Part shown: piece by piece, positions 5,274 through 36,204 of the stretch
Numbering within the stretch: position 1 is the first letter of the stretch
How the letters are laid out: the number at the start of each line of letters is the position of its first letter
Assembly: GCA_041750655.1 (NCBI GenBank)
Contig: JBGSYZ010000015.1
Span: 7,119 to 71,118 of the forward strand
Origin: Minisyncoccia bacterium
GTDB taxonomy: Bacteria; Patescibacteriota; Minisyncoccia; Phycocordibacterales; UBA918
DNA length: 64,000 bases
Direction: 5' to 3'
Program-made: the position numbers and the translations under genes
The notes under the pieces: generated by a model
What the model was told of the DNA's origin: nothing
Databases searched by the model: none
Seen by the model: the letters and a program-made list of their open reading frames with translations, nothing else

Positions 5274-5999
5274 TCAACGCTTCAGTTTACGAAACAGCAT
5301 CATAAATAAATCTTTTTGAAACTTGGCTATTGTTGGATTTTCAATAACGGTGGCAATTGGTTGAGTGTAATCGATGAAAGCTATTTTGTTGCCGTAAATA
5401 ATCTGAGAAATGCCATAGCTAAAGGGTAGAAATTCTTCTGGTACAACACGAAGAGATTCCTCGAGAGATGGTTCTCGTGAGGCGACATAGTCTGGATTAG
5501 TAATTACTAAACGTTCCAACTGCATTGCGTCGCGCATTTTTTCGTACTCTTTGGGTAAGCCTACGGTCAAAATATGTTCAGAACTTTCTGAGCTATAGCG
5601 ATAAAATTCGTCACCTTTTTTTAGAGTTTGTAAAATATCTTCAAATACTGCGTATACTCCAGCTTTACCGTCTAATCTTTTTACAATTGGTTTTGTATTA
5701 TTTTGTAGCTGGTTTAATTGAGGAATAACAGTATTTAATTCTTCATGCACTACATCCAAGAGTGATCGTAAACGTTCTGGAGGTTCAGCTGCGTAGTGGG
5801 TAAGTTTTCCTACTTGGCGCTCACTAATGAGGCCTTTGTCTTTAAGGTGGGGAAGGGCGCGGTAGATGGCTGGTCGGTGTAATTTGCTGGTACGAGAAAT
5901 ACTCGAGATAGTCTGAGTACCATATGTAAGGAGATCCATATAAATACCAATTTCAGTTTTATTAAGCCCAATAGCCTGTAATAGAGTAGTTATTTGCAT
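5274..5999 (-). CDS. TrmB-family HTH transcriptional regulator
   Basis: N-terminal winged-HTH pattern (LGLNKTEIGIYMDLL...ISSISRTSKLHRPAIYRALPHLKDKGLI) followed by a TrmB-like C-terminal domain. Confidence 0.55.
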   Translation of the reverse strand: MQITTLLQAIGLNKTEIGIYMDLLTYGTQTISSISRTSKLHRPAIYRALPHLKDKGLISERQVGKLTHYAAEPPERLRSLLDVVHEELNTVIPQLNQLQNNTKPIVKRLDGKAGVYAVFEDILQTLKKGDEFYRYSSESSEHILTVGLPKEYEKMRDAMQLERLVITNPDYVASREPSLEESLRVVPEEFLPFSYGISQIIYGNKIAFIDYTQPIATVIENPTIAKFQKDLFMMLFRKLKR

Positions 6000-6372
6000 A
6001 AAATGTATTAAATTACTACAACTTTTTATAAGTTATAATATGCTTATTTGTATTGATTGTAACATGTATTTAAATTATACACAGTACATTTTGTATTATA
6101 TTTTTACACAATTTAAATAGAATAAATTATAGTGTAGGTGTAGTTAAGGAAACAAAACCAAGACAACTACTAGCACCTTACAACGTACTAAATCTGACAA
6201 CCGAAGGAAGGTTCCTTGCAAGGCTTTTCTTATGGGGTGTTTTAGTCAGATTTAGCATCACATACAGAAAAGCCCTGCAACGAGCGCTTCCTTACGGAAG
6301 CGCTCGTTCGTGTCCCGGCTCTAGGGTAGGGTCGGGTGGTGACGCGAAGCATCTTGTAATAAGGAGTATCCA

Positions 6373-6612
6373 ATGGATTGGATTCAAGTGGCTAGTTTGT
6401 CGCTCTTAGTTGGCGGGTACCTATGGTTTCGCTGTGCACGGATCAGACGACTGAGTCATTCGTTCATTGGGTGGCTCAAGTCTGAACCGGAAGAGGTGAA
6501 AATTGTGTTCACTCGGCCTGGTCAACAGAAAAAGAGACCAGGTGTACTGATAGACGGTGTTCCGTACCGTGATATCACCGATGAGCGATCAATCGAAAAG
6601 TTTGAGGACTGA
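6373..6612 (+). CDS. hypothetical small membrane protein (GC-rich island)
   Basis: ORF with one TM segment; AGGAG RBS 8 nt upstream; lies in the GC-rich segment. Confidence 0.3.
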   Translation: MDWIQVASLSLLVGGYLWFRCARIRRLSHSFIGWLKSEPEEVKIVFTRPGQQKKRPGVLIDGVPYRDITDERSIEKFED

Positions 6613-6747
6613 CATGCTCACTTTACTGTTCATCTACAAATGTCTCACTCTGCTCGGAATTATGGCTGTGCACCGACTCCTGCTTCGGTGAGTTGGTCGG
6701 TGGGCGGCTTTGCCGCCCACCCTCTTAACAACTCGTTCTTTTTTAAG

Positions 6748-6806
6748 TAAATCTGAACGTTCCTTCTGAGTGCTGCTCGGATACAATCGAGCAGCTTTCT
6801 AAGGAG
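6748..6806 (+). repeat. 58-bp direct repeat (copy 1): 5' leader with hairpin and AGGAG
   Basis: aaatctgaacgttccttctgagtgctgctcggatacaatcgagcagctttctaaggag is identical to the copy at 7308-7366. Contains an 8-bp stem gctgctcg/cgagcagc. Confidence 0.9.
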
Positions 6807-6881
6807 CGAATGCTCCCACGCGTTCCGTAGCCATGTTGGCTCGGATGATAACGCAGTGTTCCTTACATGGAGGAAGAAAAA

Positions 6882-7220
6882 ATGCTGATGTTCTTGCAGT
6901 TTGTAATCGGGGCGCTGCTCGCCGCGGCTGGCTATGCAGTCTGGTACGCTGGACGCAATGTCGCCTGGAAAGCGCGCCTCGAACGGAACTTCCTAATGCC
7001 GGGCGACGACCTCTTCGCGCGCAAACGTGCCTACAGCGGCTACGTGCGGTGGCTTCGCTATGTCGCATTTCCGACCGGGCTCGTGATGCTCGTTCCGACA
7101 CCACTCATGCACGATGTGATCCTCGGCCTCATCGCTGCCGGCCTCTTCTGGTGGATGAATCGCCAAAAGGTGGCCTATGACCAGGCGGTCACGACAGCCA
7201 ATAAACGTTCGACGAAGTAG
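6882..7220 (+). CDS. hypothetical membrane protein (2 TM)
   Basis: ORF track begins at 6867; the GGAGG-supported ATG is at 6882. About 62% GC. Confidence 0.4.
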   Translation: MLMFLQFVIGALLAAAGYAVWYAGRNVAWKARLERNFLMPGDDLFARKRAYSGYVRWLRYVAFPTGLVMLVPTPLMHDVILGLIAAGLFWWMNRQKVAYDQAVTTANKRSTK

Positions 7221-7307
7221 TGTTTATCGCTCGTAGGTAACATTCAAACACATGACCTGGCGGCAGTTCGCCAGGTCATACCATCACAGCTATTGATTTC
7301 TTCTAAC

Positions 7308-7366
7308 CAATAAATCTGAACGTTCCTTCTGAGTGCTGCTCGGATACAATCGAGCAGCTTTCTAAG
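7308..7366 (+). repeat. 58-bp direct repeat (copy 2), upstream of the SPFH gene
   Basis: Identical to 6748-6806. Confidence 0.9.
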
Positions 7367-7420
7367 GAGTGTAAAAACTCTTTCATGTTCCACCACTATA
7401 TCGGTGTGGGAGATAACATG

Positions 7421-8383
7421 AAGCACTTTGAAATGCCAAAGGAGGCAATCAAGATGGAAACTCAATTTCCTGTCAAAAAAATCACCACTACTGCAGCCGC
7501 AGCCCTGGCTGCTGCCATCATCGTCTTCGGTTCAATCTATGTTGTTTCTGAAGGTGAACGTGGCGTGCTTACCCGCAACGGTGCGTTTGTTGCGGTCAAA
7601 GAACCCGGTCTCGGCTTCAAGGTTCCGATTATCGACAGTGTGACCGACATGGAAATTCGTAACATGCGGATTGAAGTGCCGGTGCATGTCTACAGTTCGG
7701 ACACACAGCAGTACGAAGCCGCAGTGTCGGTCAACTATGATCTCAACCCTGCGGAAGTCGAACGGATCTTCAAGTCGGAAGGTGTCTACTATGCCGACCG
7801 GCGTCTGAAGCCACTTGTCGAGACCATCCTTAAGGAGGTGGCAGGCAAGTATTCTGCTCAGCGCACCATCCAGGAACGTGATGTTTTCGGTGCCGCCGTA
7901 CGCGATGCTATCCGCGAGGAAGCGCAAAGCTATGGCATTAACGTGACTGAGGTGCAAATCACCAACATCGATTTCACCGACCAGTTCGAGAATGCTATCG
8001 AAACGGCTATGCTGGCGAAAGCCAAGGTCGAAGAGGAACGTAACATCCTCGAGCAGAAGCGTATTCAGGCTGAGACGCGCGTCGTTGAAGCTACCGCCCA
8101 AGCTAATGCACTGCGTGAGCAGGCAAAAGGTGAAGCGGACGCTAAGCGGACGCAAGCTGAAGCTGAAGCAACCCGCATCTCTCAAATCGGGCAAGCTGAA
8201 GCTGATGCTATCCAAAAGAAGGCTAATGCACTTCGCGACAACCCAGAACTGACCGCCTACACCTATTCTTTGGCGGCGCAGAATTGGGATGGCGCCTTGC
8301 CGACACAATTTGTGCCGGGTTCGACGCTTCCGATTCTAAATGTTGCACCCAAGGGTGATAATTCCACTCTTGTGGGCAACTGA
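7421..8383 (+). CDS. SPFH/band-7 (prohibitin/HflK-HflC-like) membrane protein
   Basis: N-terminal TM, SPFH domain (GERGVLTRNGAF...VPIIDSV...) and a C-terminal Ala/Glu-rich coiled coil. Start is uncertain (7385, 7421 or 7454; the last two have an RBS). Confidence 0.8.
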   Translation, partial: KHFEMPKEAIKMETQFPVKKITTTAAAALAAAIIVFGSIYVVSEGERGVLTRNGAFVAVKEPGLGFKVPIIDSVTDMEIRNMRIEVPVHVYSSDTQQYEAAVSVNYDLNPAEVERIFKSEGVYYADRRLKPLVETILKEVAGKYSAQRTIQERDVFGAAVRDAIREEAQSYGINVTEVQITNIDFTDQFENAIETAMLAKAKVEEERNILEQKRIQAETRVVEATAQANALREQAKGEADAKRTQAEAEATRISQIGQAEADAIQKKANALRDNPELTAYTYSLAAQNWDGALPTQFVPGSTLPILNVAPKGDNSTLVGN

Positions 8384-8428
8384 TCTTTAACCACGGTGAA
8401 TCCGGTTTACTCCGGGCTCACCCAACTC

Positions 8429-8460
8429 AAAACCCGACGGTTATTCCGTCGGGTTTTTCT
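8429..8460 (+). terminator. rho-independent terminator
   Basis: aacccgacgg-ttatt-ccgtcgggtt followed by a T-run. Confidence 0.7.
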
Positions 8461-8478
8461 GTACACGCTAATGAAAAT

Positions 8479-8643
8479 CTATTGAGAAATTTTAAACCCA
8501 ATCCAAATACCAATTACTGCCCCAACTGCATTAAAAATAATAGATGAAAATGAAAAGTATGAAGCACCCCACAACAGAGGGATGTAACCGCCAGCTGTTC
8601 CACCAATAGCCATAAAAAGCCAGATTATCTTTTTTGATTGCAT
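8479..8643 (-). CDS. hypothetical 54-aa two-TM membrane peptide
   Basis: Translated by hand (MQSKKIIWLFMAIGGTAGGY...GFKISQ); below the ORF-track cutoff; glycine-zipper-like hydrophobic helices. Confidence 0.3.
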   Translation of the reverse strand: MQSKKIIWLFMAIGGTAGGYIPLLWGASYFSFSSIIFNAVGAVIGIWIGFKISQ

Positions 8644-8736
8644 GTAGATAATTATATACAGTATTTATGTGATTATTAAGTTCATGCTACAATAAATTTT
8701 TAGAAGTGCTCCACCAAAATTAAGAAGGGATAGCCG

Positions 8737-13195: not shown

Positions 13196-13444
13196 ATGAG
13201 TATTTTAGTTTGGGTAATTTTTGGCGCTTTAGCTGGTTGGGTAGGATCAATGATTATGGGTACCGATGGACAACAGGGTTTAGTTCTTAATATTGTCGTT
13301 GGTATTATAGGCGCTGTTCTAGGCGGATATATAATGAATTACTTTGGTAAAGGTGGTGTAAGTGGATTCAATCTGTATAGCTTCCTGGTTGCAGTTGTTG
13401 GAGCCGTAGTATTGCTAGCAATACTTAAGCTTATTCGAGGATAA
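13196..13444 (+). CDS. GlsB/YeaQ/YmgE-family (transglycosylase-associated) stress membrane protein
   Basis: 82 aa (ILVWVIFGALAGWVGSMIMG...VVGIIGAVLGGYIMNYFG) with typical family length and motifs. Confidence 0.8.
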   Translation: MSILVWVIFGALAGWVGSMIMGTDGQQGLVLNIVVGIIGAVLGGYIMNYFGKGGVSGFNLYSFLVAVVGAVVLLAILKLIRG

Positions 13445-13470
13445 GCCACTTAGTTAAGTTAAGTTTGTTT

Positions 13471-13507
13471 GCAAAAATCCCCAGACTAGAAGGGGGATTT
13501 TTGCATT
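13471..13507 (+). terminator. rho-independent terminator (12-bp stem)
   Basis: gcaaaaatcccc-loop-ggggatttttgc. Confidence 0.75.
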
Positions 13508-13640
13508 TGGGTGACTACCGACCCTTGGGTGGAACCAATTGCAAGTGAGAAAGTGTGGGGCACTTTTGCAAGAGGTTGCCAGCTGCGCCTGCAGCGACAA
13601 CCTGAACAGCTTCTGTAAGAAGCTGTGTCTTGAATGGCTA
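13500..13640 (+). ncRNA. structured non-coding element, copy 2 (family unknown)
   Basis: Shares acttttgcaNgaggttgccagct...gacaacctRaacagctYctgta..gaagc and cttgggtggaRcca with copy 1, but in permuted order. The inner hairpin differs with compensatory pairing (gctgcg/tgcagc versus gtca/tgac). Confidence 0.35.
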
Positions 13641-13764
13641 AGCGATGCAAGGGTTTGTTTTAGATAGTGATATTAAAAATGGTTCCACTGGGTTGGTAGG
13701 GAAAAGAAAAGCCACCCTCTCGCCGAAACGAAAGGGTTGCTTTCAGTTTTGCCAGGGGTGGCGG

Positions 13765-14235
13765 TCAGCGTGGTTCGTATTCGTCCCAACGCTTCACTTC
13801 ACCGTACAGAACTATGTAGACACCAGGCGGTAGCGTTTGCACCGCCCCGACAGCCATACCGACGTTGAAGTCGGCATCGGACTCACGGAAGCGTTCGGGG
13901 GTCATGGCGCCCGTCAGAATGATAGTCTTGTCCGTGATGTCAGACAGATGCTCGGCAGTGACGTGAATGGTGTCGGTGCCGTGCAGAATGACCACCTTGT
14001 CTTCGTGCGCGGACGCCGCGATGCGTTTGATGGCATCACGGTCATCGTCATCCATGTCCAGGCTGTCTTCCTGGCAGGCGCAGGTAAACCCCACTGCGTA
14101 GGGAATACCAGCACGACGACAGATACGATGCCAGGCCGATTCGCCGATGACGAAGTTGTAGCCATGGTTGTCATCGTTGGCCAGATAGTCCTTGTCGATG
14201 GTGCCACCTGCTTGAATAAAGCGAATGATACTCAT
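13765..14235 (-). CDS. asparaginase N-terminal-domain-like protein (standalone, ~156 aa)
   Basis: FIQAGGTIDK and VVILHGTDTI motifs resemble the L-asparaginase/GatD N-domain. Start MSIIRF has a GGGGGTGG RBS and an ATGA overlap with the upstream gene. GC-rich. Confidence 0.45.
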   Translation of the reverse strand: MSIIRFIQAGGTIDKDYLANDDNHGYNFVIGESAWHRICRRAGIPYAVGFTCACQEDSLDMDDDDRDAIKRIAASAHEDKVVILHGTDTIHVTAEHLSDITDKTIILTGAMTPERFRESDADFNVGMAVGAVQTLPPGVYIVLYGEVKRWDEYEPR

Positions 14236-14582
14236 ACGTTGCCACCCCCGTAAGTTTCTGCACCAGCTTCGGTCGTGCACCAGCACACCGATTCGATGCC
14301 GCCGTTGATTGGCCGAACGACTTCGACCGATTTCTTGGTCACGGTCATCAGGTATTTGGCGATAACCGTGCAGCATTCAAGGAATTCAGGACGAGTGAAG
14401 TCCTTTTCTTCCATGAAAACGTGCACGACCATCACGTCAGGTTGCGTCAGCCCATCACTGGTTTCAACCCAGATGAAATGTGGGTAGACATAGCCCATGA
14501 CGTTGCTGCCAAGCGCTTTGACTTGCTCGACCTGCGTTTCGGTAGGGTGGCTGTCAGCCACGATTCTGAAAATTGGCATCAC
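14232..14582 (-). CDS. hypothetical protein (possible tautomerase-superfamily, N-terminal Pro)
   Basis: 116 aa beginning MMPIF; size and N-terminus are reminiscent of MIF/tautomerases, but sequence similarity is not established. Confidence 0.25.
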   Translation of the reverse strand: MMPIFRIVADSHPTETQVEQVKALGSNVMGYVYPHFIWVETSDGLTQPDVMVVHVFMEEKDFTRPEFLECCTVIAKYLMTVTKKSVEVVRPINGGIESVCWCTTEAGAETYGGGNV

Positions 14583-15133
14583 ACTTCCTTTCAGATAGCG
14601 ACGACGTGGCCGAGAGCCATGTTGTCGTCAGGGGGTGAAGAGTTGCTTGATCTCGGCCGTTTCTGGTGAAGGCGGCTTTCAGTTCATCGAAGGTATATAG
14701 GGTCAGCCACATACCGCTGGTATTCTCGGCTTCCAGCACGTCATCGAACCCGAACGGGGTCGAAAACATGCCAGGCTAGCCAGGCTTCAGGCAGGCCCGA
14801 AGCGATGCCAGGGTAGGTCGCGCCCAGACCGCGCACTTCACCGACTTCGAACGTATGGCCAGTGAATTCCCACTGCTTCTTGCAGTAGTCGATGCTGGCC
14901 GCAGACGGGTCGATGCCGACGTAGTTCGTGATGCCGAGTTCAGGCAAAATGCTGATGACTCTGCCGATACGACACCCGACATCAACCACTTCGCCGTCGG
15001 CAGGTACGTCCCTGAAGATATGGCGAGAGAAGTGGTCGACCCAGATTGGTGTGTCTGACGTATCACCAGCACGAATGTATTCATCGTACATGGCGACAGC
15101 CCCTGTTTCCATGGGTGAGAGTGCGAGTTCCAT
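14554..15133 (-). pseudogene. class I SAM-dependent methyltransferase interrupted by a +1 frameshift
   Basis: N-terminal ORF (14741-15133) carries the VVDVGCRIG motif I. The C-terminal continuation (FGFDDVLEA...) is in another frame (14554-14769). Removing one C from the CCCC run near 14745 restores a single frame. Confidence 0.5.
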
Positions 15134-15352
15134 TCGCGTGTCCCTTCCTAGTTTGGTGTGGATGTGTGAGAACTTCTAGGCACAAGGCCGCAAAATTTCG
15201 CTTCGAACAATATAATGAAAATGGGTGTTTGTAAAGGTATTTAAATTTTGTAGTCGCTCTGGTTTCACTAAGTTCACTAGGCACTCAAAAAACACATACA
15301 GTCGAACCAAAATACCTTTATTTATATAGTCCCTAGAGAATCTAGGGCAGTA

Positions 15353-15426
15353 GGGCGGCTACCGGGAATCGAACCCGAATTTTCGGTACCACAAACCGAC
15401 GTAATAACCGTTATACAATAGCCGCC
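15353..15426 (-). tRNA. tRNA-His (anticodon GUG)
   Basis: Reverse complement gives acceptor ggcggct/agccgcc, anticodon stem tcggt/accga with loop ttGTGgt, T-arm tcggg-TTCGATT-cccgg and discriminator C. Confidence 0.8.
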
Positions 15427-16648: not shown

Positions 16649-17164
16649 GAGAGTTCCTTTCTTAGCTACTCTCTATTAACTATGCCTCAGTCTATAAATA
16701 CTGCAACCGTTTATGATTTTGAAATAAAAAATGATGGCTGTATATATAGCCACATCGGATATTTTGATTCGTACTGCATCTTCACTAGGAGTTATCCACA
16801 GGTCTCCTTCACTCACATCAGTAATTTAGGTAGCAAGTAAGCCACTGCTACCATAGTAAGCCACCATACAGTAGTTTTTTTGATGTGCTAATATCATAAG
16901 TAACACACGAGTTCGTGTGTGTCGGAGGAAGACACGCGCTTCGTGGCTCATTAGCCTGTGCCCGAATAAGCACGAGTCATATTAGCTCGAGCAAAGGTGA
17001 TCTTTCTTAAAAACAACTGACCGCTTACTCCAAAGCGGCGGCCCACCAGCAATTGTTTTTGCGAACGATCATTCTCACTATCCTGTTGTAAAAACAGGGT
17101 CTCTTTCTCGATGCTGAACTTCTTGTACAACTTAATAGTACCTTTAAAGAATCGTAGTCTTTAT

Positions 17165-18478
17165 ATGAAAATTGAACACATTAAAAAACGTGATGGCTCT
17201 ACTCAGCCTTTTGATGTAGACAAAATCACCAGTGCTGTCCTGAAAGCCTTCAATGAAACTGGCGAAGGTAGTGCGGCGGAAGCCAAAAAAGTGGCTGAAA
17301 AGGTTCATGAAAAAACTATTGCCATGTGTGTACAAGCTGGCACAGCTGACACTGAAGACCCACTATCGCTGAAATGCATCGATGGCAATCCGACCGTAGA
17401 AGAAATTCAAGACCTGGTGGAGCAAGCATTGATGGAGCTCGATTACTTTGAAACCGCCAAGGCGTACATTATTTATCGTAGTGCTCGCAAAAAACTTCGG
17501 GAGCGTGATATTTTTACCAAACGCACAACCCTCAAACCTTACGAGTATCCCGAATTAGTGGAATATGTTGATGCTATTCGTCACTCGTATTGGGTACACA
17601 CCGAATTCAATTTCACTGGTGACATTGATGATTTTAAGGTGAAGGTAAACCAAGCAGAACGAAACGCTATCAAAAAGACTATGCTGGCTATTGCTCAGAT
17701 TGAAGTTGCAGTAAAAACTTTTTGGGGCAATATTTACAATAAAATGCCCAAGCCAGAGATCGGTGCGGTGGGAGCCACTTTTGCTGAAAGTGAGGTACGC
17801 CATATGGACGCCTACTCACACCTACTTGAGGTACTTGGGCTTAATGATGAATTTAAAACGCTCACTCACGAACCAGTGATTCAAAAACGCATCGCCTATT
17901 TGGATAAGACCATTAATTTAAGCAAAACCAACGACAACCGAGAATACTCACAAGCGGTGTTGCTTTTCTCACTCTTCATCGAACACGTGTCTTTGTTCTC
18001 ACAGTTCCTTATTATGATGAGTTTCAATAAGCACAAAAATCTCTTCAAGGGTATAAGTAACGCAGTAGAAGCTACCTCTAAAGAGGAACAAATTCACGGT
18101 ATGTTCGGGACTGATGTCATTAACATCGTCAAAAAAGAGCATCCAGAATGGTTTGACGATTCTCATCGTGAGACTGTTCGCACTATGTGCATTGAAGCGT
18201 ACCAAGCTGAAGATTCAATTATCGATTGGATTTTTGCTGATGGCGAACTTGAGTTTATGCCGAAAGCCGAAATTAAAGAATTTATCAAAGAGCGACTCAA
18301 CCGCTCACTTGAGGGTATTGGTATGTCAAAAGTGTTCACCGTAGATGAAGCACTGCTCGAAAAGACCGACTGGTTTGATGACGAAGTAATCGCTACCAAG
18401 CACGTCGACTTTTTTGACAAACGTTCAATTAATTACAACAAACGACAACAGAGCGTAACCAGCGCTGACCTTTTCTAA
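17165..18478 (+). CDS. nrdB: class I ribonucleotide reductase beta subunit (ferritin-like R2) with N-terminal ATP-cone
   Basis: ATP-cone pattern (MKIEHIKKRDGSTQPFDVDKITSAVLKA) followed by R2 di-iron motifs (FAESEVRHMDAYSH; LFIEHVSLFSQF). ORF track starts at 17111; the preferred start is M17165. Confidence 0.8.
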   Translation: MKIEHIKKRDGSTQPFDVDKITSAVLKAFNETGEGSAAEAKKVAEKVHEKTIAMCVQAGTADTEDPLSLKCIDGNPTVEEIQDLVEQALMELDYFETAKAYIIYRSARKKLRERDIFTKRTTLKPYEYPELVEYVDAIRHSYWVHTEFNFTGDIDDFKVKVNQAERNAIKKTMLAIAQIEVAVKTFWGNIYNKMPKPEIGAVGATFAESEVRHMDAYSHLLEVLGLNDEFKTLTHEPVIQKRIAYLDKTINLSKTNDNREYSQAVLLFSLFIEHVSLFSQFLIMMSFNKHKNLFKGISNAVEATSKEEQIHGMFGTDVINIVKKEHPEWFDDSHRETVRTMCIEAYQAEDSIIDWIFADGELEFMPKAEIKEFIKERLNRSLEGIGMSKVFTVDEALLEKTDWFDDEVIATKHVDFFDKRSINYNKRQQSVTSADLF

Positions 18479-18507: not shown

Positions 18508-20208
18508 ATGAAAAACCGAACTGAACCCTGGTACTGGATCAACGACAACACTCGAGCATTTATGGCGCGTGGTTATTTGGTTGATGGTCAAACCACTGAA
18601 GAGCGGGTGAAATATATTGCCGAGTATGCTGAAAAGGTGCTCAAGAAAGAAGGGTTTGCCAAAAAGTTTGAGGAGTACATGGCTAAGGGTTGGATTTCGC
18701 TCGCTACGCCAGTATGGACCAACTTTGGTCTCAAACGCGGTCTACCCATTAGTTGTTTTGGTTCATACCTTGCTGACGATATGGCCAGTATTTTACATAC
18801 GCAAGCAGAGGTGGGGATGATGAGTAAGTATGGTGGTGGCTGTAGTGCTTATTTTGGGGCGTTACGTGAACGCGGATCAGACATTACTCACAACGGTACC
18901 TCAAGCGGTCCAGTGCACTTCATGCAGTTGTTTGAAAAAATTCTTGACGTGGTTTCTCAAGGCGCTACCCGCCGCGGCACTTTTGCTGCGTACTTACCGA
19001 TTGAGCACCCAGATGCTCTTGAGTTTCTCGATATTGGTACTGAAGGTAATCCAATTCAAAAAATTAATCACGCTATTACGGTTACCAATGAATGGTTGCA
19101 GGCGATGGTTGATGGTGATGAGGAGAAGCGGGCAATTTGGGCTAAGGTACTACAACGCCGGGGTGAGATTGGGTATCCGTACATCATGTTTATCGATAAT
19201 GCCAATGATCAGCGACCCCAGGTATATAAAGACAAAAAATTGCCGATTTTCGCCAGTAATGTGTGTAGTGAAATCATGCTTCCAAGCAAGCCTGATTGGT
19301 CGTTTGTATGTTGTCTCTCATCAATTAACTTGATGCACTACGATGAGTGGAAGGATACTGATTTGGTAGAAACCATGATTTATCTGCTTGATGCTGTTAT
19401 GACTGACTTCCTCGAGAAGCTGGAAGCGATGCGTGACTCAGATGATCCGGATAAGCAGTTGGCTTTCAGATTTATGGAGCGTCCGTATAATTTTGCGAAA
19501 GCTAACCGTGCGCTTGGTCTCGGCACTCTCGGTTATCATTCGCTCTTTCAATCAAAAAATATACCGTTTGAAAGTGAGGAAGCGGCTAGACTTAACGAAG
19601 AGATTTTTAAACTAATTCGTGAACGAGCTGATACAGCCTCAGAAGAAATGGCTACAGAGTATGGCGAACCAGAAATTCTTACCGGCTACGGTCGTCGTCA
19701 CACCACTACTATGGCTGTGGCTCCGAATACCTCTTCGGCGTTTATCCTCGGTCAGGTATCACAAGGTATCGAACCAGTCTGGAGCAACTGTTATGTAAAA
19801 GATGTAGCCAAGTTGAAGGTGACTATTAAAAATCCATTTTTGGAAATGTTGCTCGAGGAAAAAGGTAAAAATGATAAAGCCACCTGGAATAGTATTCGCG
19901 ACAATGATGGTTCAGTTCAGCACCTGAGCTTCCTCACTGATGAAGAAAAATCTGTGTATAGAACGTTCGCCGAAATTGACCAATCAGTTATTATTGAACA
20001 AGCGGCTGTACGACAGAAATACATTGACCAAGGTCAATCACTGAACGTAATGGTACCACCAACGACGTCGCCGAAAGACATCAACAAACTGTACATGCAA
20101 GCCTGGCAAAACGGCATAAAAGCCCTCTACTACCAGCACAGCATGAACGCCGCCCAAGCCATGACCAGAAAGAAACTAGCCGAAGCAGTGGCTCGTAAAG
20201 CGGAGTAG
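18508..20208 (+). CDS. nrdA: ribonucleotide reductase alpha (catalytic) subunit, short form without ATP-cone
   Basis: Catalytic ASNVCSEIMLP (N-C-E) motif and C-terminal YYQHS tail; directly downstream of nrdB. Confidence 0.85.
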   Translation: MKNRTEPWYWINDNTRAFMARGYLVDGQTTEERVKYIAEYAEKVLKKEGFAKKFEEYMAKGWISLATPVWTNFGLKRGLPISCFGSYLADDMASILHTQAEVGMMSKYGGGCSAYFGALRERGSDITHNGTSSGPVHFMQLFEKILDVVSQGATRRGTFAAYLPIEHPDALEFLDIGTEGNPIQKINHAITVTNEWLQAMVDGDEEKRAIWAKVLQRRGEIGYPYIMFIDNANDQRPQVYKDKKLPIFASNVCSEIMLPSKPDWSFVCCLSSINLMHYDEWKDTDLVETMIYLLDAVMTDFLEKLEAMRDSDDPDKQLAFRFMERPYNFAKANRALGLGTLGYHSLFQSKNIPFESEEAARLNEEIFKLIRERADTASEEMATEYGEPEILTGYGRRHTTTMAVAPNTSSAFILGQVSQGIEPVWSNCYVKDVAKLKVTIKNPFLEMLLEEKGKNDKATWNSIRDNDGSVQHLSFLTDEEKSVYRTFAEIDQSVIIEQAAVRQKYIDQGQSLNVMVPPTTSPKDINKLYMQAWQNGIKALYYQHSMNAAQAMTRKKLAEAVARKAE

Positions 20209-32598: not shown

Positions 32599-35500
32599 AT
32601 GAATACTAAAAAGCAAGGTGAATCGCATAGCGAGAGAAGGTACCCTGGGGTAAATGGTCGTGGAAACGACTCGGTGGAAGTGGTTGAAACAAACCAAAAA
32701 AGTGATGTTGCACTGCGTGAAGAAGCCATACTAGCTTTTTGGCAGGAACACGACATATTTAAAAAGAGTGTAGACACTCCAGCTGGTGAAAAACCGGTCG
32801 GAGATTTTGTTTTTTATGATGGTCCACCGTTCGCTACTGGTTTACCGCACTACGGGCATATTTTGGCTAGTACTATCAAAGACGCTATCCCGCGGTTTTG
32901 GACAATGAATGGGTATCATGTGCGCAGGCAGTGGGGATGGGACTGTCACGGCTTGCCACTGGAGAATTTGATTGAGAAAAAATTAGGCTTAGCTACCAAA
33001 CGAGACATTGAAGAGTACGGAGTGAAGAATTTTAACGAAGCAGCCCGCGGAGCAGTGATGGAATATGCCGATGAATGGGCGCGAATAATTCCCCGCATGG
33101 GTCGCTGGGCCGACATGGAAAACGACTACAAAACCATGGATAGTTCCTACACAGAAAGTGTGTGGTGGGTGTTTTCGGAACTTAATAAAAAAGGAAAAGT
33201 GTTTGAAGGCTTTAAGTCGATGCACTTATGTCCGCGTTGTGGCACTACTTTATCTAACTTTGAGGTGAATCTGGGTTACAAAGACATAAAGGATATTTCA
33301 GTATACGTTAAGCTACCACTGATTGATGAACCAGATACGTCACTATTGGTGTGGACGACTACACCATGGACGCTACCGGGCAATATGGCGGCGGCGGTAC
33401 ATAATGAGTTTGATTATGTACAAGTTCGAGTTACTACAGATGACGGAGAAGAAAATTTGATTTTGGCTAAAGGTCGCCTCGCTGCGCTCGGCGACCTACC
33501 GTACGAAATAGTGGAAGAAATGAAAGGGGCTGACTTAGTGGGTAAACGCTATGTGCCACCGTTTGATTATTGGAGTAAGCAAGACTTTGAGGGCAAGGAG
33601 AACGCTTGGCAGATTTTTCATGCTGAGTATGTCGAGCTTGGCGAAGAAGGTACCGGTGCGGTGCACCTCGCGCCGGCCTACGGAGCGGATGATATGGAAC
33701 TGGCCAAGGAACATGGTCTACCCTTGGTGCATCACGTCGATGAGAACGGACACTTCAAGGAGTTCGTGACTGATTTCGCCGGGCAACTGGTGAAGCCCAA
33801 AGACGATGATGACTCGGGGGTAACCCACCTCGATGCTGACATTGAAATTGTGAAAGCACTGAAAGAGAGTGGCCGACTATTTAAAAAAGAAAACATCACG
33901 CACAGCTACCCACACTGTTGGCGATGTGATACACCGCTTCTTAACTACGCGACGACGTCGTGGTTTGTTGATGTACCTTCCATAAAAGACGAATTAGTCA
34001 CAGAAAACGAAAAGGTACAGTGGGTGCCAGAACATGTCGGGACGAATCGTTTTGGTAAGTGGCTTGATGGTGCTCGGGATTGGGCGGTCAGTCGCCAGCG
34101 CTACTGGGGCGCACCGCTACCGATTTGGCGTAACCCAGAAACTAAGGAATACCATGTCTTTGGTTCCCTTAAAGAAATTCAAGAATTTACTCCCAAGAGT
34201 GGCAATGAGTATTGGTTGATGCGGCACGGCGAAAGTGAAAGCAATATCAAAGGTATTATCAGTTCCAATAAAGACAATAAGGATGGCCTAACCGACAAAG
34301 GGAAGAAACAGGTTGAGAAGGCGGCTGCCATGCTACCTAAGGATATAGATATTGTTATTCACTCTGGTTTTGAGCGCACCCGCGAAACCGCCGAGCTCGT
34401 CGCGGCTGCCCTCGGCAACGCGGAAGTAATCGAAGATGATCGAGTGCGAGAGTTAGATTTGTCCGATGACTTCGAAGGAAAAAGTTGGGATGAGTACAAC
34501 GCACAGTTTGGTAGTTGGGAAGAGCGTTATACCAAGGAACTTGATGGTTCAGAAAATCGTCGTGATGTGCAAAAGCGTATGGGTTCTTTTTTGTCGACCG
34601 TTGAAGAAAAATATCAAAACAAGAAAGTACTTATTATTAGTCACGCCGGAACGCTATTTGCCTTAGAGTGTGCTGCCCAAGGTTTAAATCCGAAAGAAGC
34701 AGAAGTTCACTTTGCCAACGGCTCTCACTACCTGGATAATGCCCAAATTCGTACTTTAGACTTCACTCCTATTCCGCACAACGACAACTACGTGCTCGAC
34801 TACCACCGACCATACATCGATAATTTTGTAGTAGAAAAAGACGGAGTGCGTCTCGAGCGGGTGCCAGACGTATTTGATTGCTGGTTTGAGAGCGGTTCGA
34901 TGCCGTACGCGCAATATCATTATCCGTTTGAAAATGAAAAAGAGTTTGAGAAAAAATTATTTCCTGCCAACTTTATTGCTGAAGGACTCGATCAAACTCG
35001 CGGTTGGTTTTACTCACTCATAGTACTCGGTACAGCGTTGTTTGGAAAAAGTCCGTTTGAAAATGTGATTGTAAACGGCTTAGTAATGGCCGAAGATGGG
35101 AAGAAGATGAGTAAGTCACTACAGAACTACCCAGATCCGATGGATGTGGCTGATAGTGCTGGGGTAGATGCTATGCGATTTTATTTATTGTCTTCCTCAA
35201 TTGTCCGCGGTGAGGATTTAAATTTTTCTGAGAAAGGAGTGCTGGAATTACAGCGTAAAAATATTGGCCGATTACACAATGTGCTCACTATGTTTAAAGA
35301 ATATAGTATAGATGCAAAAACAGCATCCCACGCTGTTTCAGCGAGCGATAATTCTCCCCATGTCTTAGATACATGGATCATCGCTCGCCTCAATGAGCTC
35401 ATCGCCGAAACTACTGCTGGCTATCAAGCCTATGAACTTGATAAAGCAACGCGACCAATTACCGACTTCATTGACGACGTATCCGTCTGGTACTTACGAC

Positions 35501-36204
35501 GCAGTCGAGAAAGACTGAAAGGTGTCGGGAAGTCCGGGGGACTTTCCGACACAGAAGACAAAGAGCTAACTTTAGGTACGATGCGACATGTACTAAAAAA
35601 CTTAGCTCTGGTGATGGCCCCCGTCATGCCTTTCTATGCAGAGTATCTGTGGCAAGCGGTAAAAGAAGAAAAAGAAGCAGAGAGCGTACACTTAGGAGTT
35701 TGGCCAAAGGCAGGAGTGATTGACGATGAGCTCCTAGCTGAAATGAAGTTAACTCGAGAAGTCGTTTCACAAGCTTTGGAAGCCAGAGCTAAGTCTGGGT
35801 TGAAGGTACGACAACCACTTTCTGCACTAACCTCGCCAACTATGGTCGGTGATGATTTTGTAGACATTGTTAAAGATGAAGTAAACGTTAAAGCAGTCAT
35901 TTTTGATGAATCTGTCGAGAGTGTTGTTCTCAATGAAACAATTACCCCCGAGCTCCAGGCGGAAGGCGACACTCGTGAATTAATCCGAGCTATTCAAGAT
36001 ATGCGTAAACAGGCTGGGTTACAAACTGCAGATAGAATCAAGCTCACTATTCAGACTTCTGATGGTGGAGAGGCAATTGTAAAACTATTCCAAACAGACA
36101 TCCAAAAAACTGTTGGTGCGACGGAGGTGGTTTTCGGTGACGCACATGGTAGTGAAATCAAAGCGGGTGAGCATGAGTTTACTGTCGAGATAACTAAAGT
36201 GTAG
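32599..36204 (+). CDS. ileS: isoleucyl-tRNA synthetase (type 2) carrying an inserted histidine-phosphatase-like domain
   Basis: HIGH (PHYGHIL), GWDCHGLP, WAVSRQRYWGAPLPIW, WFESGSMPYAQ and KMSKS (KKMSKSL) motifs. An extra segment of about 190 aa (residues ~535-725) carries RHGESESN. The start codon is uncertain. Confidence 0.85.
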   Translation: MNTKKQGESHSERRYPGVNGRGNDSVEVVETNQKSDVALREEAILAFWQEHDIFKKSVDTPAGEKPVGDFVFYDGPPFATGLPHYGHILASTIKDAIPRFWTMNGYHVRRQWGWDCHGLPLENLIEKKLGLATKRDIEEYGVKNFNEAARGAVMEYADEWARIIPRMGRWADMENDYKTMDSSYTESVWWVFSELNKKGKVFEGFKSMHLCPRCGTTLSNFEVNLGYKDIKDISVYVKLPLIDEPDTSLLVWTTTPWTLPGNMAAAVHNEFDYVQVRVTTDDGEENLILAKGRLAALGDLPYEIVEEMKGADLVGKRYVPPFDYWSKQDFEGKENAWQIFHAEYVELGEEGTGAVHLAPAYGADDMELAKEHGLPLVHHVDENGHFKEFVTDFAGQLVKPKDDDDSGVTHLDADIEIVKALKESGRLFKKENITHSYPHCWRCDTPLLNYATTSWFVDVPSIKDELVTENEKVQWVPEHVGTNRFGKWLDGARDWAVSRQRYWGAPLPIWRNPETKEYHVFGSLKEIQEFTPKSGNEYWLMRHGESESNIKGIISSNKDNKDGLTDKGKKQVEKAAAMLPKDIDIVIHSGFERTRETAELVAAALGNAEVIEDDRVRELDLSDDFEGKSWDEYNAQFGSWEERYTKELDGSENRRDVQKRMGSFLSTVEEKYQNKKVLIISHAGTLFALECAAQGLNPKEAEVHFANGSHYLDNAQIRTLDFTPIPHNDNYVLDYHRPYIDNFVVEKDGVRLERVPDVFDCWFESGSMPYAQYHYPFENEKEFEKKLFPANFIAEGLDQTRGWFYSLIVLGTALFGKSPFENVIVNGLVMAEDGKKMSKSLQNYPDPMDVADSAGVDAMRFYLLSSSIVRGEDLNFSEKGVLELQRKNIGRLHNVLTMFKEYSIDAKTASHAVSASDNSPHVLDTWIIARLNELIAETTAGYQAYELDKATRPITDFIDDVSVWYLRRSRERLKGVGKSGGLSDTEDKELTLGTMRHVLKNLALVMAPVMPFYAEYLWQAVKEEKEAESVHLGVWPKAGVIDDELLAEMKLTREVVSQALEARAKSGLKVRQPLSALTSPTMVGDDFVDIVKDEVNVKAVIFDESVESVVLNETITPELQAEGDTRELIRAIQDMRKQAGLQTADRIKLTIQTSDGGEAIVKLFQTDIQKTVGATEVVFGDAHGSEIKAGEHEFTVEITKV

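Follow-up and report, generated by a model that had tools for sequence, protein, structure and literature searches.

A repeated hairpin element and a second structured leader upstream of a prohibitin-like gene in Patescibacteria

Results

Organization of the locus

The stretch of DNA analysed here, called the window throughout, comprises 64,000 nucleotides of contig JBGSYZ010000015.1 (Minisyncoccia bacterium, assembly GCA_041750655.1). It contains a 59-nt exact direct repeat, TAAATCTGAACGTTCCTTCTGAGTGCTGCTCGGATACAATCGAGCAGCTTTCTAAGGAG, at positions 6748–6806 and 7311–7369, on the + strand like all features below unless indicated, and each copy precedes a gene, the second of which codes for a prohibitin-like membrane scaffold protein of the SPFH type. 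The repeat is the hairpin part, or “head”, of a previously uncatalogued structured leader (leader B) found before this prohibitin-like gene in a few Patescibacteria. Shuffling the sequence 100 times with dinucleotides preserved, as the control for significance, gave no match, and the copy number within the window is two. An initial annotation, made from the letters alone, had recorded the exact leader repeat at 6748–6806, but as 58 nt rather than 59 and with its second copy at 7308–7366; the 8-bp hairpin it described, GCTGCTCG/CGAGCAGC, is present in each copy.

The repeat lies in a GC-rich island, as that annotation had stated. GC content is 0.48–0.62 over 6150–8400, compared with 0.29–0.31 in 5851–6300 and 0.36 in 8401–8700, and no 2300-nt segment of the whole window is richer in GC than the one from 6201 (0.514 vs. 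a mean of 0.441 with a standard deviation of 0.024, approximately 3 standard deviations). The three nested inverted repeats reported for its left edge are likewise all found, namely an 11-bp inverted repeat (6188–6198 and 6245–6255), the palindrome CCTTGCAAGG (6214–6223) and a 13-bp stem (6279–6291 and 6296–6308).

On its left, the island is bordered by a divergent gene for a TrmB-family helix-turn-helix regulator (5274–5999, − strand; Pfam TrmB, E = 3e-14). The first element of the putative operon is a structured 5′ untranslated region (UTR), leader A (6188–6372), followed by ORF79 (open reading frame; 6373–6612), which codes for a small protein with one N-terminal transmembrane (TM) segment, has a ribosome-binding site (RBS), AAGGAG, 6 nt upstream of its start, and is without a match in Pfam or NCBIfam. 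A possible 25-aa hydrophobic mini-ORF, MLTLLFIYKCLTLLGIMAVHRLLLR, can be read at 6614–6691, with GAGGA 5 nt upstream. The first leader B comes next and leads into the gene for a 112-aa membrane protein with two TM segments (2-TM gene; 6882–7220), the start of which fits the N-termini of its homologues, and the second leader B leads into the SPFH gene (7454–8383, 309 aa). The SPFH protein belongs to the Band_7 family (PF01145, E = 1e-32; 114 bits against a cut-off of 23.6) and has a hydrophobic N-terminus; its nearest solved relatives are prohibitin 1/2 and HflK, and it scores under the HflK/HflC cut-offs. Its start had been placed at 7421, but 7454 is the most likely position, because AAGGAGG lies 8 nt upstream of it, homologues begin at the corresponding codon (MEYQ... 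or MEII...), and L015 has its upstream ATG in another frame (labels of this form denote metagenomic contigs or loci carrying homologues of the SPFH gene). Each cistron has a Shine-Dalgarno (SD) sequence 5–8 nt from its ATG. None of the three proteins (ORF79, 2-TM and SPFH) matched the PADLOC defence models, which gives no support to a defence reading.

A consensus scan for sigma-70 sites (−35 and −10 hexamers spaced by 16–18 nt) returned a single + strand candidate in 5900–8700, TTTACA...TATAGT at 6103–6133, and nothing at either repeat; the idea that the two genes are separately driven from the repeats finds no support in it. The predicted transcription start is at ~6140, where the GC content begins to rise, and both a TTTTTACACAA block and a TATAGT/TATTGT box recur in L004, L006 and L019; 6103–6133 is the putative promoter. 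A candidate TrmB operator is an AT-rich block between the divergent promoters (~6078–6097 up to 6115), common to the same three relatives, in which TTTTTACACAA comes after the palindrome ATACA-N10-TGTAT. Two other promoter readings were set aside. Neither the box nor TACAAT in the hairpin loop coincides with a site of the scan, and TACAAT is not kept in L015, L006 or L019; for a TCTGA −10 with a GGAAC −35 of the extracytoplasmic function (ECF) type no −35 was seen by inspection at the right spacing.

Intrinsic terminators, defined as a GC-rich stem-loop followed directly by at least 5 U in 8 nt, were not called in 5900–8700, the heads being followed only by UUUCUAAG or UUUUGUAA. At the right edge of the GC-rich stretch lies an inverted repeat, AAAACCCGACGG-ttatt-CCGTCGGGTTTT (8429–8457, given without strand), which is a probable bidirectional terminator; it was missed by the scan, its T run sitting inside the stem.

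Structure and conservation of the repeated head

The head is made up of a 9-nt box, UAAAUCUGA, and a three-tier irregular hairpin of ~50 nt and ~20 bp. Copy 1 (6748–6806) folds with a minimum free energy (MFE) of −28.9 kcal/mol (z = −5.5) and scores 83 bits with a covariance model; its helices are an outer one, CGUUCCUU/AAGGAGCG, a mid one, GAG/UUC, and, beyond a U-U mismatch, an inner one, GCUGCUCG/CGAGCAGC. Copy 2 (7311–7369) stands at the position orthologous to heads upstream of the SPFH gene in L015 (542–599), L006 (5866–5923) and L019 (2258–2316). The MFE fold is common to all five heads. In the consensus, an unpaired box UAAAUCUGR precedes an outer helix of 6–9 bp, (A)CGUUCCUU with AAGGAG(Y)G. 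A small internal loop separates this helix from the mid helix (3–4 bp), and a pyrimidine-U mismatch separates the mid helix from the inner one (7–10 bp), which ends in a variable loop.

The helices are maintained by changes on both strands, as seen for the inner helix (GCUGCUCG/CGAGCAGC, ACUGCUUG/CAAGCAGU, ACUGUUGUGC/GUACAGCAGU and UGCUGCA/UGCAGCA) and for the mid helix (GAG/UUC, CAA/UUG and ACG/UGU). Five pairs, or nine cells of the alignment, have changed on both sides, a covariation score reached by none of the shuffles, and 83% of the head alignment is paired compared with 39–56% in slid controls, the former value being an underestimate since the outer helices of L015 and L006 are one column out of register. 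The G-U pairs are compatible with the sense strand only, and the box is invariant across all copies. These are the features of a conserved, structured, cis-regulatory RNA (compensated helices, sense strand and a place 5′ of cistrons, here in only five related sequences), carried by the head through its two-sided changes and by the helices P2, P3 and P4 of leader A described below. They also bear out the earlier idea of a shared, cis-acting, gene-proximal element, with the helices compensated in orthologous loci and the G-U pairs fitting the sense strand. In the window and 19 loci (174 kb in total) the covariance model of the head recovers these five instances only.

The same annotation had taken the AAGGAG that ends each copy for an RBS. 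It is instead the 3′ strand of the basal helix, where its partner is GUUCCUU, and its distance from the start codon is 75 nt in copy 1 and 84 nt in copy 2, whereas an RBS would be expected some 5–10 nt before the start; since each cistron also has an SD of its own, the head AAGGAG is not an RBS.

Leader B is the head together with a tail hairpin, a unit that three other metagenomic contigs also have before their orthologous SPFH genes, with base changes that compensate for each other. In general, the tail starts with a hairpin with a covarying outer helix (UUUCAUGUU/AACAUGAAG, UUUGCGUU/AACGCGAA, UUUUGCAUU/AAUGCAAAG, UCUCGUG/CACGAGA or CUUUGUC/GACAAAG), followed by GAUAAC-RYG-AAGC...CUUUG and by the true SD. 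The copy-1 tail (6807–6881), which aligns with other leader-B tails, is predicted to form a GGAGC/GCUCC hairpin, a second hairpin CGCGUUCCGUAGCC...GGCUCGG...AACGC and a third, UUCCUU/GAGGAA, which covers the true SD of the 2-TM gene, GGAGGAAG (6869–6876). The copy-2 tail (7370–7453) is 85% identical to that of L015 and has a predicted alternative hairpin AAGGAGU/ACUCUUU, the hairpin UUUCAUGUU...AACAUGAAG, the motif GAUAAC-AUG-AAGC and the true SD of the SPFH gene, AAGGAGG (7439–7445). A 6-codon ORF, ATGCTCCCACGCGTTCCGTAG (6810–6830), begins 3 nt after copy 1; it is found neither after copy 2 nor in the orthologues and is probably fortuitous.

Every head is preceded by a GC hairpin and a pyrimidine-rich spacer of 17–31 nt. 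Upstream of copy 1 the hairpin is GGTGGGCGGC-TTT-GCCGCCCACC (6699–6721), with a pyrimidine-rich spacer of 26 nt, and upstream of copy 2 it is ATGACCTGGCG-gcagtt-CGCCAGGTCAT (7252–7279), which follows the 2-TM gene and ends 31 nt 5′ of the head. Hairpins of the type GGGCGGC/GCCGCCC or GGGCC/GGCCC stand 17–31 nt 5′ of the head in L015, L019 and L006.

Leader A and the modular make-up of the leaders

Leader A is more conserved than the repeat and, in our view, more interesting: its folding z is −6.9, and a 68-nt core, (C)TAAATCTGACAACCG(T)AAGGARGGTTYCTTGCAAGRCTTTTCTT...GTGTTTTAGTCAGATTTAGC, is nearly invariant in its five homologues, while the coding DNA beside it is just 74–82% identical. It opens with the box CTAAATCTGAC (6188–6198) and a small hairpin AAGGA/UCCUU (6204–6217), followed by the long hairpin P2 (6218–6278; 27 bp), of which the apical loop holds GTCAGATTTAG (6245–6255), the complement of the 5′ box. 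The GC hairpin P3 (6279–6308), the tail hairpin P4 (~6309–6348) and the SD AAGGAG (6361–6366) complete it. In the five sequences, 99% of P2 is paired (40–49% in slid controls), and four of its pairs have both bases replaced; in L019, for instance, UAUGGGG...CAUCACAUA is swapped for UGCCCGG...CGCCGAGGUA and the pairing is kept. Compensatory changes between homologues are also seen in P3 and P4. The box and the apical loop of P2, which together make the 11-bp inverted repeat, could possibly form a pseudoknot (P1) or a pairing that replaces the top of P2. In L014, an SPFH relative in which both leaders are lacking, a short 5′ hairpin at 125–160, GCGTCTGAC-ATTCC-GTCAGAC, reuses the words TCTGAC, ATTCC and GTCAGA of leader A's box and loop.

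A 20-mer from the core had its sole match among species-representative genomes in a known relative, JAYQPD010000007.1, and a search of viral contigs for the second invariant block gave no match. Rfam 15 identified only two tRNAs in the window at gathering thresholds and, at E-values up to 5, chance-level matches far under threshold in 5900–8700; the leaders of L004, L006, L015 and L019 had no match either. A small peptide, ATGGGGTGTTTTAGTCAGATTTAG, that could be read inside leader A was discarded as its ATG is not kept in L019. On present evidence leader A is a candidate for a new structured RNA of Patescibacteria, with five related loci so far.

Both leaders open with the same box and the leader-A tail is homologous to the leader-B tail, including that of copy 2; leaders A and B are therefore paralogous modules of the type box–middle–tail, which differ in the middle domain. 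The head is a shortened module, paralogous to leader A with its larger middle domain. In L004, leader A directly abuts the SPFH gene and there is no leader B.

Relatives of the locus and origin of the repeat

The SPFH gene has 35 homologues (59–94% identity) in Patescibacteria-type metagenomic contigs, and the named relatives of the window's FtsK (66–69% identical) are Candidatus Pacebacteria, Parcubacteria and Patescibacteria. The divergent TrmB gene adjoins the SPFH locus in L004/L005 (GCA_038145135.1), L006 (GCA_054018315.1) and L019, and both leaders are likewise found on L015, a short contig; positions 6017–6370 of the window align with the TrmB–SPFH intergenic regions of all of these. 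Both leaders are lacking in the SPFH relatives L002, L014, L008, L016, L020 and L029; in these, and in L003, which is grouped with L002, the gene has other neighbours and short, unrelated 5′ regions. Protein-guided retrieval from metagenomes gave six loci, none with the leaders, and the SPFH relatives in viral contigs were only 31–34% identical.

The initial annotation proposed that the whole cassette was acquired horizontally. Since the order TrmB–leader–SPFH is syntenic in four relatives, this genome has not recently imported the entire cassette; the GC content at third codon positions (GC3) is host-like in ORF79 (z = 1.1) and mildly elevated in the SPFH gene (z = 2.0). What is left of the proposal concerns the 2-TM gene, which is compositionally foreign (GC 0.596; GC3 0.743 vs. 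0.407 ± 0.074 in 59 host ORFs, z = 4.6), has no counterpart at the locus in L004, L006, L015 or L019, and is likely a recent insertion. A full HMMER search of 1.84 billion representative proteins found 13 homologues of it, of 105–122 aa and at most 53% identical; for its 117-aa and 112-aa forms, exact look-ups gave no record and a word-index homology search no match. Most of these homologues are on contigs of 539–1470 nt, one of them near the 563-nt spacing of the two heads. Such short contigs would fit repeat-flanked cassettes that break assemblies, although this is only suggestive. At the position of ORF79, between leaders A and B, the relatives hold other small membrane ORFs, which differ per genome and are mutually unrelated.

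The two heads are 100% identical within the window and 68–75% identical to the orthologous heads, and the copy-1 and copy-2 tails are only 54% identical, compared with 85% between the copy-2 and L015 tails. With identical heads beside diverged orthologues and tails, purifying selection is no explanation, and a recent duplication or a gene conversion limited to the head is called for. Of the two causes that had been offered for the exact identity, recent duplication thus stands, with gene conversion beside it, and selection does not. The copy before the 2-TM gene appears to be a second, freshly homogenised head. The most economical history would start from an ancestral operon with the order leader A–cargo–leader B–SPFH, which either gained a unit made up of leader B and the 2-TM gene or had its head homogenised later.

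Cores of the 59-mer (22–32 nt) had no exact match in viral, species-representative or JGI metagenome collections, which do not include the window's own genome, and no similar DNA was found among the PLSDB plasmids. A dispersed repeat such as a miniature inverted-repeat transposable element (MITE), considered earlier as an alternative, would have many copies per genome, terminal inverted repeats with a target-site duplication and no positional tie to genes. It is rejected on the grounds of the unmatched cores, of just two copies in 64 kb, both 75–84 nt 5′ of start codons, and no further copies by covariance model. An integron attC site or gene cassette was rejected too, given that neither core site was seen in the 59-mer by inspection and that there is no integrase among the neighbouring ORFs.

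An independent assembly, the Logan assembly of SRR28170474, is 100% identical to the window from 7340 onward. Its contig begins 30 nt before the end of copy 2; a break inside this copy is expected because a true repeat should break a k=31 graph.

Among further observations on the relatives, SPFH orthologues with 68–94% amino acid identity lie in unrelated neighbourhoods (L016 4001–4912, L014 456–1370, L006 6001–6924 and L008 3001–3897). In every relative the gene is GC-richer than its surroundings (48% vs. 23% in L016, 62% vs. 43% in L014), and it is plausible that the SPFH gene moved between Patescibacteria lineages in the past or still does so. A large serine recombinase with Resolvase, Recombinase and Zn_ribbon_recom domains is encoded at 1–792 of L006; this gene and a PhdYeFM/YoeB toxin-antitoxin pair lie 2–5 kb 5′ of the TrmB–SPFH locus.

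Other features of the window

Three observations concern other parts of the window. The gene at 32599–36204 codes for a 1201-aa class I aminoacyl-tRNA synthetase resembling isoleucyl-tRNA synthetase (tRNA-synt_1, Anticodon_1 and DUF5915), with a His_Phos_1 histidine-phosphatase domain inserted at residues 539–709. The ribonucleotide reductase genes (17111–18478 and 18508–20208) place an N-terminal ATP-cone on the small subunit and none on the adjacent 566-aa large subunit, while in L006 the ATP-cone is instead on the 980-aa large subunit. A second GC-rich stretch (~13200–15200; 0.50–0.59) beside tRNA-His (15353–15425, − strand) contains an asparaginase-like gene (13765–14376, − strand) and a 130-aa ORF (14741–15133, − strand), with a GC3 of ~0.63 vs. 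a host mean of 0.41; they are likely a horizontally acquired pair at a tRNA gene.

Discussion

The explanation that we favour, and consider probable if by no means certain, is that of one Patescibacteria transcription unit with modular leaders that act on the mRNA after transcription, in which the identity of the heads stems from duplication or gene conversion at the insertion of the 2-TM gene. The unit would run from the promoter at 6103–6133 through leader A, the small membrane ORFs, leader B, the 2-TM gene and the second leader B to the SPFH gene. Head and tail would form a modular mRNA element set before a cistron, with the SD-like AAGGAG of the basal helix paired with the anti-SD-like GUUCCUU. 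The element could mark a point of processing or of 5′-end protection between cistrons, tune the access of ribosomes, or both, and the outcome would be an expression of the SPFH gene, and here also of the 2-TM gene, that is independent of the variable upstream ORFs. The 2-TM gene would have been inserted between two leader-B copies, with head identity arising from the linked duplication or conversion. An RNA-level cis element is suggested by the compensatory changes, the sense-only G-U pairs and the fixed place 5′ of cistrons, and by the fact that neither a promoter nor a terminator was called at the heads. Processing or protection is preferred because what stands before each cistron has the layout of such intercistronic sites, with a GC hairpin and a spacer followed by a single-stranded, AU-rich box and then by a long irregular hairpin; the element is most likely one of post-transcriptional punctuation and protection, possibly with a translational component. 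From the earlier interpretation, a shared cis-regulatory RNA and a recent duplication are retained, and the RBS leader and the import of the whole cassette are given up.

Several points weigh against this explanation. The single polycistronic mRNA and the action at the RNA level are both read from sequence, and the presence of both heads in one molecule is taken from the assembly. The covariation statistics are thin and phylogenetically correlated, with five homologous loci that all come from related genomes, and the arms of the possible pseudoknot in leader A (box and loop complement) are both invariant, which allows no covariation. Ensemble predictions put the anti-SD on the decoy AAGGAG with P = 0.42–0.98 and on the true SD with at most 0.09, which lends a translational switch little support. 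The predicted folds have AAGGAG base-paired, whereas a stabilising SD-like site (STAB-SD, see below) must be free, and the processing model assigns no nuclease.

The alternative that survives best, although we find it unlikely, is a sensor RNA with an SD-decoy switch, in which leader A would resemble a riboswitch or thermosensor. In the ON state the anti-SD GUUCCUU would be held by AAGGAG; in the OFF state AAGGAG would pair with the arm of the downstream hairpin hp2 and the anti-SD would mask the true SD. AAGGAG does have two conserved partners, the downstream arm covarying as ACUCUUU, GCUCC, CGCUUC and GAUACUUC, and forcing GGAG to pair downstream places the anti-SD on the true SD at a cost of only 0.2–1.3 kcal/mol in copy 1, copy 2 and L015. 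The alternative fold costs 2.8–4 kcal/mol in L006 and L019, however, and does not mask the SD there, and the probability of at most 0.09 given above again applies. Leader A would suit a sensor by its 68-nt core, its possible pseudoknot and its GC hairpin followed by UUU(U)G, but it matches no Rfam riboswitch, its gene context suggests no ligand, and its distribution is very narrow.

A bolder version, which strikes us as improbable, makes leader A a new sensor RNA (a riboswitch, or responsive to a protein or to temperature) whose invariant P2 loop, GUCAGAUUUAG, could pair either with its own box or with the identical boxes of the downstream heads. One sensor would thereby coordinate the processing or translation of several cistrons on one mRNA, and the leaders would be a multi-site modular riboregulator peculiar to a Patescibacteria SPFH operon, as well as a portable 5′ UTR letting foreign small membrane genes join the operon by homologous recombination.

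An intercistronic attenuator seems improbable to about the same degree. The inner hairpin of the head with UUUCU or UUUUGU, and P3 of leader A with UUU(U)G, would be intrinsic terminators that lower read-through into the following cistron, possibly countered by an antiterminator that binds the box. The GC-rich stems of 7–10 bp followed by 3–4 U in all homologues, their location 5′ of each cistron and the conserved single-stranded box, which could be a protein site, are consistent with this. On the other hand, the scan of 5900–8700 found no terminator, the U tracts are short, interrupted and predicted to be paired in the mid helix, and inspection revealed no antiterminator pairing with the 5′ arm of the hairpin.

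It is very unlikely that the elements are sites at the level of DNA, with the boxes TAAATCTGAC (6189, 6748 and 7311, and inverted at 6245–6255) as half-sites of a TrmB operator, or the heads as recombination sites that swap cassettes of small genes. The box is indeed invariant in all copies, with no covariation that would prove RNA pairing; the ORFs between leaders A and B differ in every genome; and identical heads bracket a foreign gene whose homologues are mostly on very short contigs. Yet RNA is indicated by the helices around the box, preserved as they are through compensatory changes and G-U pairs, and a better operator candidate is the ATACA-N10-TGTAT palindrome (~6078–6097) in the AT-rich promoter region. 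For recombination, no integron-type core sites (RYYYAAC/GTTRRRY) were seen by inspection, no integrase is adjacent, and L004 has neither cargo nor head but an intact leader A, a misfit with box-to-box recombination.

An assembly artefact, in which a short-read assembler chained heads from different strains or loci, is scarcely credible: a k=31 assembly of the same type of data does break inside the repeat, and the graph would fit an empty site plus a 563-nt circle or tandem equally well, but 59 nt is shorter than ordinary reads and can be spanned with unique flanks, the window's genome is present in NCBI on a 73.6-kb contig, and each of the two right-hand contexts consists of a full leader-B tail and a real gene after it, so that both must exist in the data.

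To our knowledge, few regulatory RNAs have been described for Patescibacteria (the Candidate Phyla Radiation). Their genomes are reduced, with little non-coding DNA, and in such genomes an intergenic region of ~370 nt with a 68-nt, near-invariant structured core is costly and presumably important. The locus brings together two linked, uncatalogued RNA modules on an operon for a prohibitin-type scaffold protein, with small-protein partners that vary between genomes. It is also a worked example of a perfect short repeat that would stem from local gene conversion or cassette insertion, and not from selection or a mobile element. Should the elements be only stabilising hairpins, they would be of routine interest.

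Comparison with known systems

No SPFH-associated RNA motif was found in the literature, and the closest parallels are partial ones. In the STAB-SD of cry3A from Bacillus thuringiensis, an SD-like site ~125 nt 5′ of the start is single-stranded, binds the 30S subunit and blocks RNase J1 (review PMC4113751; Agaisse and Lereclus 1996). The AAGGAG of the heads resembles it in lying far 5′ of the start (75–84 nt, compared with ~125 nt in cry3A), within a long 5′ UTR, and in being non-initiating: the only nearby ATG (6810, 3 nt past copy 1) is not kept in copy 2 or in the orthologues. It differs in being predicted to pair with GUUCCUU (P = 0.42–0.98) or else with the hp2 arm. The cry3A site lies downstream of the point to which a longer transcript is trimmed, while processing at the heads is a model only.

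A second parallel is with intercistronic processing hairpins, such as the RNase III sites of phage T7, and with stem-loops that stabilise 5′ ends. The heads are comparable as repeated, irregular hairpins of ~20 bp with internal loops between cistrons, each preceded by the 3′ hairpin of the upstream cistron. There is no sequence relation, however, the conserved single-stranded 9-nt box has no equivalent in those systems, and cleavage is a proposal in our case.

Leader A is similar to riboswitch and attenuator leaders in its conserved core, compensated helices, possible pseudoknot and adjacent GC hairpin, directly 5′ of the first cistron; it departs from them in having no Rfam match even at E-values up to 5, five examples in one narrow clade and a weak U tract after P3. 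As for the genes, the arrangement recalls the operons of SPFH proteins (prohibitin, HflK/C and QmcA) with small membrane partners such as NfeD, since a Band_7 gene lies downstream of genes for small membrane proteins in what would be one unit, but here the upstream small ORFs are unrelated between genomes and match neither NfeD nor any other family.

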